This document shows, one piece after another, positions 54,122 through 64,000 of a stretch of DNA of 64,000 nt. Positions within the stretch are counted from its first letter, which is position 1. Each line of letters begins with the position of its first letter. A program made the translations under genes and the position numbers. The stretch comes from Zavarzinia compransoris. Its GTDB lineage: Bacteria > Pseudomonadota > Alphaproteobacteria > Zavarziniales > Zavarziniaceae. The notes below the pieces were generated by a model. The model was not told where the DNA came from. It was given only the letters and a program-made list of their open reading frames with translations, and did not search any database. The stretch covers positions 5,085-69,084 of the forward strand of contig NZ_QGLF01000001.1 of NCBI RefSeq assembly GCF_003173055.1, read 5' to 3'.

Positions 54122-55504
54122 CTAATTCTGCGCTGCCGCCGCCTTCGAAATGGCGATCCCGTATTTCTTCAGCCGGTGCCACAGGCTGCGCTCGTTGATG
54201 CCCAGCAGTTCCGCGGCGCGAACCTGGACGCCGTTGGCCTGCTTGAGGGCGGCAAGGATATATCGCCGCTCGAATACCGCGGCTTCCTCATCGAGCAGGA
54301 TCGGGAAGCCGGCCCCCGGCTCGGCCGCGGGGCGTTCGGTCAGATAGGCGGGCAGGTCGCGGGCCTCGATCGTGCGCCCTTTCGACTGGATCAGCAGGCG
54401 TTCCACGCAGTTCTGAAGCTCGCGGACATTGCCGGGCCAGCGGTAGGCGGAGAGCAGCCGTGCCGCCTCGGCACTGAACTGAATGCCGCGCTTCCCCAGT
54501 GATGACGAGAGCTGGTTGACGAACAGGTCCAGCAGGAGAGGAATGTCTTCCGGCCGTTCCCGCAAGGCGGGCAGGGCGATCGGGAAAACCGCAAGGCGAT
54601 AATAGAGGTCTTCGCGGAAACGGCCTTCGCCCGCCATGGCCAGCAGATCGCGGTTGGTCGCGGCGATGATGCGGACGTCGGCCGAGCGCTGGCTCGATCC
54701 CCCTACCGGCTCGTATTGCCTTTCCTGCAGCACGCGCAGGATCTTGGCCTGCAGGTGAAGCGGCATGTCGCCCACTTCGTCCAGAAACAGCGTGCCGCCC
54801 TCCGCCTGCCCGAAGCGCCCGGTCCTGTTGGTCAGGGCGCCGGTAAAACTGCCCTTCACATGGCCGAAGAATTCGCTTTCCAGCAGGTTCTCGGGGATCG
54901 CGGCGCAGTTGACGGCGACGAAGGGCTTGCGATGGCGGGGACTGTTGAAATGGATGGCCCTGGCGACGACCTCTTTTCCCGTGCCGCTTTCTCCGGTCAG
55001 GAGCACGGTCGTGCGCTGCTCGCAGACTTCGCCGACGGACCGGATGACGGCGCGGAAACTGCCGGAGTTACCGACCAGGGAGTCGAATTTATAGCGCCCG
55101 GCCAGTTCCTGGCGCAGATGCTCGTTGTCGCGCAGGGCATCGCGCAGGCGAAGCGCATTGGCCAAGGTGGTCGACAGGTCATCCTGCTCGATCGGCTTGT
55201 CGATATAGTCGAAGGCGCCGTCCTTGATCGCCTGCACGGCATCCCGCACCGAACTGAAGGCGGTCATGATGACGACGGGCATGGCCGGGTGCTTGGAACG
55301 TATCTCGGCCAGCAATTCCCGGCCGCCCATGACCGGCATCCTGAGGTCGGTCAGCACCAGGTCGACCTGTTCCCGTTCCAGGATGTTCAGGGCTTCGGCG
55401 CCGTTGGCCGCCGCGACGCTGGCATAGCCGAGCGCCTCCAGCGCGCCGGAAAGGACGTCGAGGAGACGGATCTCATCGTCAACGATCAGGATCGTGTGGG
55501 GCAT
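54122..55504 (-). CDS. sigma-54-dependent response regulator (NtrC/Fis family: REC + AAA+ + HTH)
   Basis: REC domain (ILIVDDE...DLVLTDLRMP), AAA+ Walker A GESGTGKE, GSFTGA (GAFTGA variant), ESELFGH, R-finger, C-terminal Fis-type HTH. Start MPHTIL at 55504. Confidence 0.85.
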   Translation of the reverse strand: MPHTILIVDDEIRLLDVLSGALEALGYASVAAANGAEALNILEREQVDLVLTDLRMPVMGGRELLAEIRSKHPAMPVVIMTAFSSVRDAVQAIKDGAFDYIDKPIEQDDLSTTLANALRLRDALRDNEHLRQELAGRYKFDSLVGNSGSFRAVIRSVGEVCEQRTTVLLTGESGTGKEVVARAIHFNSPRHRKPFVAVNCAAIPENLLESEFFGHVKGSFTGALTNRTGRFGQAEGGTLFLDEVGDMPLHLQAKILRVLQERQYEPVGGSSQRSADVRIIAATNRDLLAMAGEGRFREDLYYRLAVFPIALPALRERPEDIPLLLDLFVNQLSSSLGKRGIQFSAEAARLLSAYRWPGNVRELQNCVERLLIQSKGRTIEARDLPAYLTERPAAEPGAGFPILLDEEAAVFERRYILAALKQANGVQVRAAELLGINERSLWHRLKKYGIAISKAAAAQN

Positions 55505-62803: not shown

Positions 62804-64000
62804 ATTACTTCAGCACTGTAACCCCGCGCACCGCGCGCAGCGCGGCGCTCTTCGATACCGCCGCGAGGGTGATCCCCGGCGGCGTCAACAGCACCGCCCG
62901 GGCGCAGTGGGCGGGCTGGACGCCCTATCCCCTGTTCGTGACGGGGGGGACGGGGGCCTGGCTCCAGGATGTCGACGGCAATCGCTACGTGGATTATCTG
63001 CTGGGCCTCGGGCCGATGATCCTCGGCCATCGGCCGCCGGCGGTGACCGATGCCGTGGTGGAATTCATCCGCAACCGCGGCACCGTCTTCGCCCTGCCGA
63101 CGGAGGAGGAGGCGGTGCTGGCCGAGAAGATCATCGCGGCGGTGCCGAGCGTCGAGCAGGTCCGGCTCTGCAACACCGGGACGGAAGCGGTGCTCTATGC
63201 CACGCGCCTTGCCCGGGCCTTCACCCGCCGCAGCAAGATCGTCCGCTTCGAGGGCATGTATCACGGCTTCTCGGATGCGGTTTACTGGAGCAAGCACCCC
63301 CGCATCGACGAGGCCGGCCCCGACCATCGGCCGCGCCCGGTCGCGCAGGGGCCGGGCCTGCCCAAGGGGGTCGAGGACAATCTCATCATCCTGCCCTGGA
63401 ACGATGCCGAAGCCCTCGCCGAGGTGCTGGCGACCAGGGGGGACGAGATCGCGGCGGTGCTCATGGAACCCGTCATGTGCAATACGGGCTGCATCCTGCC
63501 GCAGGCCGGCTACCTGGAGGCCGTCCGGGACATGACCGGCCGCCACGGCGTCGTGCTGATCTTCGACGAGGTGATCACCGGCTTCCGCCTGGGCCTCGGG
63601 GGGGCCCAGGGGCGCTTCGGCATCCTGCCCGACCTGTCGGTCTTCGCGAAGGGCTTGGGGGGCGGTTTCCCGGTGGCCGCGCTGGGCGGCCGGCGGGAGA
63701 TCATGGCCCTGGTCGCCGATGGCACCGTGTCGATGGCGGGGACCTATACGGCCAACGGCATCGCCGTCGCTGCGGCCAATGCCGCCCTCGACGAATTGAG
63801 CGGCGCCGGCGTCTACGACCGGCTGGACGAGGTCTCCGACCGCCTGCGCGGCGGGTTGGGCCGGATCTTCGAACAGGCGGGGCTGCCGGCCTTCGTGGTC
63901 GGGCTCGGGCCGCTGATGCAGGTCTGGTTCTCGCGCGAGCCGATCGCCAACTACCGGGATGCGGTCCGTAACGCCGACCAGGCCCTATTTCGTGTCTGGT
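62800..64000 (+). CDS. class-III (PLP) aminotransferase, glutamate-1-semialdehyde-2,1-aminomutase-like; 3' end beyond window
   Basis: Frame not listed in the ORF track because it runs off the window end. My translation from GTG 62800: VNYFSTVTPRTARSAALFDTAARVIPGGVNSTARAQ...RFEGMYHGFSD...DEVITGFRLGLGG...KGLGGGFPVAA, the HemL-like signature, including the PLP-Lys region (AKGLGGG). Confidence 0.75.
   Translation, partial: MNYFSTVTPRTARSAALFDTAARVIPGGVNSTARAQWAGWTPYPLFVTGGTGAWLQDVDGNRYVDYLLGLGPMILGHRPPAVTDAVVEFIRNRGTVFALPTEEEAVLAEKIIAAVPSVEQVRLCNTGTEAVLYATRLARAFTRRSKIVRFEGMYHGFSDAVYWSKHPRIDEAGPDHRPRPVAQGPGLPKGVEDNLIILPWNDAEALAEVLATRGDEIAAVLMEPVMCNTGCILPQAGYLEAVRDMTGRHGVVLIFDEVITGFRLGLGGAQGRFGILPDLSVFAKGLGGGFPVAALGGRREIMALVADGTVSMAGTYTANGIAVAAANAALDELSGAGVYDRLDEVSDRLRGGLGRIFEQAGLPAFVVGLGPLMQVWFSREPIANYRDAVRNADQALFRVW

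Follow-up and report, generated by a model that had tools for sequence, protein, structure and literature searches.

Gene Content and Organization of the Locus

The window considered here is a stretch of 64,000 nucleotides (nt) of Zavarzinia compransoris DNA (contig NZ_QGLF01000001.1, positions 5,085 to 69,084), whose distal end carries a cassette of ten genes in two divergent transcription units, departing in opposite directions from a 295-nt spacer (61612-61906). The cassette is widely conserved and apparently undescribed, and its sequence features suggest an inducible pathway of the cationic-conjugate or envelope-modification kind. The minus-strand operon comprises eight genes within 7.49 kb (54122-61611), transcribed in the order HAD, ARG, DMT1, ABH, GNAT, DMT2, HK and RR; the plus-strand unit consists of DES and AT only, and a convergent gene follows AT on the contig (Table 1). 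The genes were re-derived from six-frame open reading frames (ORFs), start-codon context and the public calls on the Zavarzinia compransoris contig SNXM01000004.1; searches of Pfam and NCBIfam gave back the predicted domains of all ten genes, in agreement with the gene calls of that contig. An eight-gene operon of 7.5 kb facing a desaturase and aminotransferase unit had been proposed in an original prediction made from the DNA letters alone, and all the identities given there were recovered.

The same prediction described most of the gene junctions as ATGA overlaps. Two are of this type (DMT2/GNAT and ABH/DMT1), the other overlaps being TTGA (HK/DMT2), GTGA (DES/AT), 7 nt (DMT1/ARG) and 26 nt (RR/HK), and at the remaining two junctions the genes are separated by 8 and 24 nt. 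Since genes overlap in both units, the tight coupling that had been deduced from the junctions holds.

Table 1. Features of the cassette and of its surroundings, in window coordinates
Feature	Position	Strand	Description	Basis
RR	54122..55504	-	NtrC-type sigma-54 enhancer-binding response regulator, 460 aa	REC, AAA+, Fis-type HTH
HK	55479..57293	-	Sensor histidine kinase, 604 aa, TTG start	HAMP, HisKA, HATPase_c (Pfam)
DMT2	57290..57685	-	Half-size DMT/EamA membrane protein, 131 aa, four transmembrane segments	Pfam EamA 24.3 bits (gathering 28.2)
GNAT	57682..58815	-	Double-GNAT transferase of FemX/MprF fold, 377 aa	Fold comparison of model
ABH	58824..59675	-	Cytoplasmic alpha/beta hydrolase, 283 aa	Pfam Hydrolase_4 82.5 bits
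DMT1	59672..60037	-	Half-size DMT/EamA membrane protein, 121 aa	Pfam EamA 33.6 bits
ARG	60031..60894	-	Divergent ureohydrolase (arginase fold), 287 aa	Pfam Arginase
HAD	60919..61611	-	HAD-IB phosphatase, MtnX-like subfamily, 230 aa, first operon gene	NCBIfam
Operon promoter	61666..61680	-	Sigma-54 -24/-12 promoter of HAD to RR	Exact match, TGGCACGGATCTTGC
Dyad	61724-61738	none	Candidate shared upstream activator site	CTCCAAAATTTGCAG, between both promoters
DES-AT promoter	61813..61827	+	Sigma-54 -24/-12 promoter of the DES-AT unit	Exact match, TGGCACGGAGCTTGC
DES	61907..62803	+	Membrane di-iron desaturase/hydroxylase-family protein, 298 aa	Pfam FA_desaturase 97.4 bits
AT	62800..64000, cut by window end	+	GSA-aminomutase-like class-III aminotransferase, 448 aa in full	Pfam Aminotran_3
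Transport block	49756-54110	+	FtsX/MacB-type permease, ABC ATPase, HlyD-type adaptor, MlaC, MlaA; convergent with RR	Pfam
Third promoter match	29524-29538	+	Intergenic TGGCAC-N5-TTGC	Exact match
Monooxygenase gene	29581-31383	+	SnoaL_2 and FMO-like flavin monooxygenase, 600 aa	

Sigma-54 Promoters and Shared Activator Site

The sequence TGGCAC-N5-TTGC is matched exactly three times in the window against 0.21 expected, and three matches were reached in none of 100 shuffles. Two of them confirm the outward-facing promoters predicted for the spacer: they are separated by 133 nt and each is aimed at the adjacent start codon, the minus-strand promoter lying 55 nt upstream of the HAD ATG at 61611 and the plus-strand one 80 nt upstream of the DES ATG at 61907. 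Sigma-70-like promoters were not detected between 53900 and 64000, where 1.1 would be expected.

The candidate activator site is a dyad located between the two promoters, and its pattern CTNCAA-N3-TTGNAG occurs in exact form only once in the window. Its proximal edge is 44 nt from the -24 element of the minus-strand promoter (58 nt start to start), and 75 nt separate it from the -24 element of the plus-strand promoter. The region previously indicated as a possible activator site, at about 61727-61752, overlaps this conserved dyad, which actually spans 61724-61738. The third promoter match of the window, found 43 nt upstream of the monooxygenase gene, is not accompanied by the dyad, so a different activator presumably operates there.

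The upstream regions were compared with those of related loci, which were collected by means of a profile of GNAT homologues. This profile found 407 relatives in bacterial and archaeal contigs representing one genome per species, the best 80 of which were taken with 10-kb flanks; co-occurrence was scored by tblastn and ORF clustering on 83 non-redundant loci, namely 16 alphaproteobacterial, 45 Pseudomonas, 21 Xanthomonadales and one Gemmatimonas. A promoter is present within about 130 nt of the start of the HAD orthologue in 59 of the 60 loci containing the activator, and in one of the ten Xanthomonadales loci devoid of it. Alphaproteobacterial loci have a second -24/-12 element upstream of DES, or of AT if DES is absent (L015-L023), and the plus-strand promoter is kept upstream of DES in Labrys, Roseiarcus and locus L021. 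Pseudomonas displays the variants TGGCCC-N5-TTGC before the ARG-DMT unit and TGGTCT-N5-TTGC before DES.

Side-by-side comparison of the upstream regions revealed a dyad consensus, approximately GCTNCAAAWTTTGNAGC, common to Alphaproteobacteria and Pseudomonas, with a one-mismatch form in Gemmatimonas. The exact dyad occurs in 50 of the 91 fetched loci, usually as a single copy at the equivalent position, and its distribution follows that of the activator (49/60 loci with it, 0/10 without it); in Pseudomonas, the dyad keeps a constant distance of about 79 nt from the -24 element. Because the occurrence of promoter and dyad tracks that of the activator, there is strong comparative evidence that one candidate activator site serves both promoters, a regulatory device which is ordinary in kind. 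This co-variation, together with the recurrence of the gene set in at least 80 loci, upholds the original prediction of a self-contained and autoregulated sigma-54 regulon.

In all the Pseudomonas loci the dyad occurs as a tandem duplicate, TTGTAGCAAGCTACAAAAATTGTAGC, between the divergent mipA and HAD genes (P. protegens, L002 6870-6925), where it adjoins a further conserved block, GCGCGCATCAATC.

The regulatory proteins are encoded by the last two genes of the operon that they would control, which implies positive autoregulation. HK and RR, encoded by adjacent genes, possess the H-box, the ATPase domain and the receiver aspartate of NtrC-family two-component systems. In HK, transmembrane (TM) segments 20-38 and 283-301 flank a periplasmic domain of about 244 residues, and the H-box, HEVRNP, is at position 379. 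RR matches the Pfam families Response_reg, Sigma54_activat (237.6 bits), AAA_lid_14 and HTH_8; the phospho-acceptor motif DLVLTD is found at position 48 and GSFTGA, a variant of GAFTGA, at position 218. Orthologues with 55-77% identity to RR close the operon in the alphaproteobacterial, Pseudomonas and Gemmatimonas loci. The best NCBIfam matches of RR are AtoC, NtrC and PEP_resp_reg, each under its own cut-off. Identity with AtoS/AtoC was rejected on the NCBIfam scores (AtoS 188.4 against a cut-off of 646, AtoC 485.6 against 714), and so was identity with PrsK/PrsR, as TIGR02915 gave 401.8 against a cut-off of 502.6 and the locus contains no exosortase genes.

Conservation and Variants of the Cassette

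The conservation of the gene neighbourhood, which had been proposed as a check, proved extensive: the set recurs in Alphaproteobacteria, Pseudomonas, Xanthomonadales and Gemmatimonas, and a reduced core is found in Verrucomicrobiota and Planctomycetota. ARG and DMT1 each accompany GNAT in all 16 alphaproteobacterial and all 21 Xanthomonadales loci, in 38 of the 45 Pseudomonas loci and in the Gemmatimonas locus (1/1). In the same lineage order, the counts are 15/16, 20/21, 38/45 and 1/1 for DMT2, 16/16, 19/21, 43/45 and 1/1 for ABH, and 16/16, 11/21, 42/45 and 1/1 for HAD, the Xanthomonadales value for HAD being lowered by the truncation of several loci. In Xanthomonadales the gene set is never joined by HK and RR, which go with it in the alphaproteobacterial, Pseudomonas and Gemmatimonas loci. 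Gene order is reshuffled among the lineages, which marks the association as selected and not as inherited synteny. Pseudomonas protegens, P. chlororaphis and a large part of the P. fluorescens group are among the carriers, and in this group the cassette occupies core-like chromosomal positions. A complete cassette with HK and RR was also found on the 609-kb plasmid unnamed2 of Microvirga sp. M2 (L023), which is compatible with horizontal spread.

The aminotransferase behaves differently from the other components. GSA-type AT proteins of Alphaproteobacteria and Xanthomonadales are 74-79% identical, as compared with 41-50% for the other cassette proteins, suggesting either an unusually strong constraint or a recent transfer of the AT gene alone. 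In Pseudomonas and Gemmatimonas AT is replaced by an ArgD/GabT-like class-III enzyme of 457-464 residues, located in another position.

Additional genes accompany the cassette in particular lineages. A MipA outer-membrane protein is encoded inside the cluster in 42 of 45 Pseudomonas and 11 of 16 alphaproteobacterial loci, and genes for an ACP and a KAS II directly follow GNAT in 16 of 21 Xanthomonadales loci. A methyltransferase resembling cyclopropane-fatty-acyl-phospholipid synthases (CMAS, 300 bits) is found upstream of AT in 10 of 16 alphaproteobacterial loci (e.g., L016 2457-3821, plus strand); in these loci, of the Alsobacter/Microvirga type, its presence may reflect shared synteny only. 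A DUF347 membrane protein occurs near the cassette in Zavarzinia, about 1.3-4.2 kb past the window end (L001 13194-16147) and followed by an OmpR-type two-component system, and directly after KAS II in Rudaea (L005 13458-14237); it may be a coincidence or an accessory part. Seven representative loci contained no Rfam elements, including guanidine riboswitches.

An exhaustive search with the GNAT profile gave 508 clusters (50% identity) at E<=1e-30, and the long matches revealed four types of fusion: ABH-GNAT (P0494), GNAT-ARG (P0507, P0525), EamA-GNAT (P0434) and GNAT-EamA (P0409, P0407 and Xanthomonadales proteins). As GNAT is fused with the ureohydrolase, with the hydrolase and with DMT proteins, these activities are tied to one pathway. 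Fusions also occur in simplified loci. The smallest, L095, is a three-gene form consisting of [GNAT-ARG]-EamA-EamA alone, and L096 is a reduced form arranged as AT-HAD-[ABH-GNAT]-EamA-EamA. A third variant, L094 (2463-12820), encodes HAD, an M20 (ArgE-like) peptidase, AT, a PaaK-like AMP-binding enzyme, [GNAT-ARG], two EamA proteins and a GH114 enzyme; here a GDSL lipase replaces the alpha/beta hydrolase and an OmpR-type system controls the variant. GH114 and GH18 genes adjoin some of the variants.

The association of DES with the ureohydrolase extends further. In Planctomycetota, in Verrucomicrobiota and on unassigned contigs, DES homologues (55-58% identity) adjoin a homologue of ARG (about 30% identity), and these neighbourhoods usually include two EamA genes or GNAT. 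On sequence grounds, the core of the system thus comprises GNAT, ARG and the DMT pair, with DES as a frequent partner module and AT, HAD and the esterase as another.

The lipid-export block adjacent to the cassette, which the original prediction had pointed out, is present in Zavarzinia, where it is convergent with RR; no such Dev/Mla block stands beside the cassette in any of the other fetched loci, and for this reason a functional link was rejected.

Properties of the Encoded Proteins

GNAT had been described as a FemAB-like acyltransferase. It is indeed a GNAT protein (Pfam matches Acetyltransf_6 and FemAB_like), but the predicted structure displays the tandem GNAT fold of FemX and MprF, which is typical of aminoacyl-tRNA-dependent enzymes. 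FemX was the top structural match and Sbb17 the second-best, with MprF also among the neighbours; the tandem GNATs that use acyl-CoA scored lower (Orf14 16.9, N-myristoyltransferase 15.7, MshD 15.0). At the sequence level, searches of the PDB with the protein alone and as a profile gave nothing meaningful, with no match to solved Fem or MprF structures, and no NCBIfam family was matched even at E<=10. The protein falls outside Pfam FemAB (PF02388), to which one of 17 GNAT members gave a match with E 0.064. Matches to ATE_C, the arginyl-tRNA transferase domain, are sporadic (one of 17 members at E 0.081, one fusion protein at 1.1e-4) and are a hint only. GNAT contains an invariant lysine, K328 (in KLRLG), and an invariant basic helix, TRKDLRRK, at the places where reviews locate the catalytic lysine and the tRNA-binding helix of FemX (PMC12945691). 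Both features extend to the wider superfamily and are no proof of the nature of the donor; together with the weak ATE_C matches, they are indirect hints of the use of an aminoacyl-tRNA.

ARG has the arginase fold, and its metal-ligand motifs GSGDxHH, HFDNHPD and DKD are invariant in 20 of 20 homologues, as is DxCG(E/D). Since all these residues are retained, ARG is in all likelihood active as a guanidino or amidino hydrolase. The arginase-fold protein of the original prediction is a genuine ureohydrolase with its ligands intact, and the amino- or polyamine-lipid idea given there is better restated as guanidino/ornithine chemistry rather than polyamines generally. Identity with the agmatinase equivalog was rejected (NCBIfam score 24.4 against a cut-off of 302), and a sequence search of the PDB found nothing meaningful. 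The Zavarzinia protein lacks about 23 residues around positions 150-165 which are kept in all 19 aligned homologues, the metal ligands being unaffected; the confidence of the ARG model is low in the same region.

The two half-size membrane proteins carry an acidic residue in TM1. In DMT1 this is D17, conserved as D or E in 77 of 77 orthologues within the motif DxxxQxxxK; in DMT2 it is E26, found in 73 of 77 orthologues within ExxxQxxxK. This region resembles that surrounding Glu14 of EmrE-type SMR exporters, and one fused DMT domain matches the SMR family of Pfam. The acidic TM1 residues of both halves imply a cationic cargo. A hydropathy scan of DMT1 identified three TM segments, and a fourth, C-terminal one is suggested by the sequence. 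The nearest named NCBIfam families are ArnE for DMT1 (48.8 bits, cut-off 92) and ArnF (36.3, cut-off 99) and ArnE (30.2, also under its cut-off) for DMT2. In Xanthomonadales and other groups a DMT2 homologue is fused to the C-terminus of GNAT.

DES has the three histidine boxes (HNFIH at 61, HMRHH at 97, HAEHH at 237) and the hydrophobic segments that characterize the PF00487 superfamily. Its matches to the CrtR and CrtW models have E values of only 0.0012 and 0.49, respectively, and a sequence search of the PDB gave nothing meaningful. HAD exceeds the cut-offs of both TIGR01489 (102.1 bits, cut-off 81.55) and TIGR01488 (74.5, cut-off 45), and its DFDGT motif is at position 8. ABH shows the nucleophile elbow GLSMG at position 96, and its gene always lies immediately upstream of GNAT.

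AT extends about 146 nt past the window end. Its NCBIfam scores are 395 for NF000818 (cut-off 398), 384 for hemL TIGR00713 (cut-off 527.3) and 376 bits for GntE, all of them slightly too low because the sequence within the window is devoid of the last 48 residues. Identity with HemL was rejected, the score being under the hemL cut-off. The GntE match also raised a guanitoxin lead, on which the descriptions of GntB conflict: it is a "transmembrane" arginine hydroxylase according to one report (bioRxiv 10.1101/2023.03.21.533663), whereas a review presents it as an alpha-ketoglutarate enzyme (PMC12371840). The lead is given no weight here.

Proposed Function and Alternatives

Sequence and comparative evidence establish how the cassette is laid out for regulation, that its genes belong together, which folds they encode and that the catalytic motifs are intact; its chemistry is inferred. 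We propose, with a probability of about 50%, that it is an inducible system for the synthesis and translocation of a cationic conjugate derived from arginine or ornithine, the likeliest product being a cationic aminolipid for envelope remodelling. An arginine/ornithine unit is indicated by the recurrence of a ureohydrolase with ArgD- or GSA-type aminotransferases and an ArgE-like M20 peptidase, and the ureohydrolase-transferase fusion implies that a guanidino group is present on the substrate or product of the transferase. From the three-gene minimal form it further follows that the substrates are ubiquitous ones, for instance Arg-tRNA or arginine together with a widespread acceptor.

According to this proposal, HK would sense a periplasmic signal and phosphorylate RR, which would bind the dyad and fire the two divergent sigma-54 promoters. 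GNAT would couple the arginine/ornithine-type unit to an acceptor, either by transferring arginine from Arg-tRNA or through acylation of arginine or ornithine, and ARG, fused or adjacent to it, would remove urea and convert the guanidino group to an amine (arginyl to ornithyl). AT and HAD may supply or tailor the amino component, DES may tailor the hydrophobic part, and the ABH esterase may trim or recycle the product. The latter would be carried across the inner membrane by a DMT1/DMT2 heterodimer, by virtue of its buried acidic residues.

Within this model a lipidic product is somewhat favoured over a soluble one, because of the DES partner, the kinship of GNAT with FemX and MprF, the MprF-like fusion of synthase and translocator, the ArnE/F relatives, MipA, the ACP/KAS II genes and the lipase-type esterases. 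Across phyla, it is with ARG that the DES-family partner is most tightly associated. A more specific version, in which arginine is transferred from Arg-tRNA to a lipid or lipid-linked acceptor, deguanidinated on the lipid to ornithine, an amino acid carried by no tRNA, and flipped outward by an SMR-like DMT pair under sigma-54 envelope sensing, must be regarded as doubtful.

Several points weigh against the proposal of a cationic conjugate. DES is optional, being found within 10 kb in about half of the proteobacterial loci, and the 64-kb window contains no rpoN. The hints on the GNAT donor conflict: ACP/KAS in Xanthomonadales and the AMP-binding enzyme of L094 point to an acyl group, the nearest folds to an aminoacyl-tRNA. 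The SMR-like acidic residues would suit a soluble exported cation no less than a flipped lipid, and identity of the DMT halves with ArnE/ArnF was rejected, as the scores are under the cut-offs and no arn genes lie nearby. To our knowledge, a substrate has been established for no member of the cassette subfamilies. Small soluble molecules are the usual substrates of ureohydrolases, class-III aminotransferases and HAD-IB phosphatases. Finally, the gene combination, which the original prediction did not recognise as a described pathway, was likewise found in no published description, although one could exist, as most subscription journals lay outside the search; the cluster is not mentioned in a 2026 review of aminoacyl-tRNA-dependent enzymes (PMC12945691).

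A possible, if tentative, alternative is that the product is a soluble secreted metabolite of arginine or ornithine (an antimetabolite, a signal or a compatible cation). A FemX-like amide bond would be formed from an aminoacyl-tRNA, the small molecule would be tailored by the ureohydrolase, aminotransferase, phosphatase and di-iron oxygenase, and export would be SMR-like. Besides the usual preference of three of these enzymes for soluble substrates, the acidic TM1 residues of both DMT halves and the fused DMT domain matching SMR agree with this explanation. A membrane desaturase homologue, RtxC, acts on a soluble compound, dihydrorhizobitoxine. FemX-like double-GNATs are known from natural-product pathways (VlmA, DhpH/K, PacB and Orf11; PMC12945691), and Sbb17 was the second-best structural match of GNAT. 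MipA, ACP/KAS II, the lipase-type esterases, the FA_desaturase family of DES and the MprF-like GNAT-transporter fusion lean instead toward a lipid; moreover, so wide a distribution, with core-like positions in the P. fluorescens group, is not what one usually sees with a specialised toxin.

Catabolic operons are often under the control of sigma-54 two-component systems, and AtoS and AtoC are the best NCBIfam matches of HK and RR. The cassette could then serve the catabolism or detoxification of a guanidino compound that is supplied from outside and detected in the periplasm, in a manner resembling the arginine succinyltransferase route: N-acylation by GNAT would be followed by deguanidination by the ureohydrolase, transamination and deacylation by the hydrolase, with expulsion of a toxic cation through the DMT pair. 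GNAT, the guanidino hydrolase, the ArgD-type aminotransferase and a deacylase (the M20 peptidase of L094) do mirror the arginine chemistry of that route. This explanation is unlikely, however, as the AtoSC scores are far under the cut-offs, neither an aldehyde dehydrogenase nor an uptake system is present, the DES-family protein, ACP/KAS II and MipA would have no role, and the GNAT-transporter fusion suggests that the product is handed to an exporter.

Very unlikely is the modification of a polyprenyl-phosphate-linked cell-wall or polysaccharide precursor, with FemX-like addition of an amino acid to lipid II or an undecaprenyl sugar and an ArnE/F-like flip, because, in spite of FemX as top structural match, ArnE/ArnF as the named families closest to DMT1 and DMT2, MipA (MltA-interacting protein family) in the cluster and GH114/GH18 beside some variants, no variant encodes a glycosyltransferase, an ArnT-like transferase, a Mur or a nucleotide-sugar enzyme, PF02388 is matched by a single GNAT member, and the ArnE/F scores are under their cut-offs.

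The synthesis and export of a cationic arginine/ornithine conjugate remains the preferred reading. The carriers exceed 400 species-level genomes, including studied biocontrol strains, and no assigned function was found for the cassette. If a cationic aminolipid or conjugate is indeed produced on demand, it would represent a new system of envelope-charge remodelling beside MprF and Arn, with possible consequences for the resistance to cationic peptides and for the colonisation of roots or soil. It could also reveal a tRNA- or acyl-dependent transferase coupled to deguanidination on the substrate, and an SMR-like pair acting as a lipid or cation translocator. The regulatory parts, i.e., two promoters, one dyad and a kinase/activator pair under its own control, have been delimited with single-base precision, and the cassette occurs in tractable Pseudomonas hosts.

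Comparison with Known Systems

Among systems that share single components with the cassette, the PrsK/PrsR-controlled PEP-CTERM/EpsH1 loci have an NtrC-type response regulator, TIGR02915 being the third-best match of RR. They also share with it alpha/beta hydrolases, a PLP enzyme and a GNAT of the FemAB-like kind, joined in certain lineages by an ACP. The cassette differs in having no exosortase, PEP-CTERM proteins or exopolysaccharide genes, and its GNAT has no NCBIfam match. With the FemX family (FemX/A/B; VlmA, DhpH/K, PacB, Orf11/Sbb17), the identity of GNAT is 14-17% only, and the gene context of the cassette is unlike that of any described Fem or natural-product cluster.

Ornithine lipids (OlsB/OlsA, OlsF; OlsC/D/E) offer an analogy only, based on a supply of ornithine, a GNAT-type N-acyltransferase, an ester enzyme, a membrane oxygenase and a cationic or zwitterionic aminolipid of the outer membrane. 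No cassette protein matches OlsA, OlsB or OlsF, and in the cassette ornithine would arise by deguanidination. Pseudomonas already possesses olsBA elsewhere.

The systems most alike in their working are MprF with its aminoacyl-phosphatidylglycerol hydrolase (PA0920/PA0919; LpiA/AcvB) and Arn, in which a cationic head group is synthesized in the cytoplasm and then translocated, although the cassette belongs to neither. Arn, which adds 4-amino-arabinose to lipid A under PmrAB control, is likewise inducible by a two-component system and uses a heterodimer of half-DMT proteins as translocator; in both systems, before flipping takes place, an aminotransferase acts, a group is transferred in an N-acyl/formyl-type step and a metal-dependent enzyme performs a hydrolysis. 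The cassette is devoid of ArnA, ArnB, ArnC, ArnD, ArnT and any glycosyltransferase, has an acidic residue in both DMT halves, and depends on an NtrC-type rather than an OmpR-type regulator. Compared with MprF, to which it shows no sequence match in the PDB searches and no MprF-type Pfam family, a pair of half-DMT proteins with four TM segments takes the place of the large flippase domain. The cassette adds to the MprF scheme an obligatory ureohydrolase, together with an aminotransferase, a phosphatase and a desaturase, and places the whole set under sigma-54/NtrC-type control.

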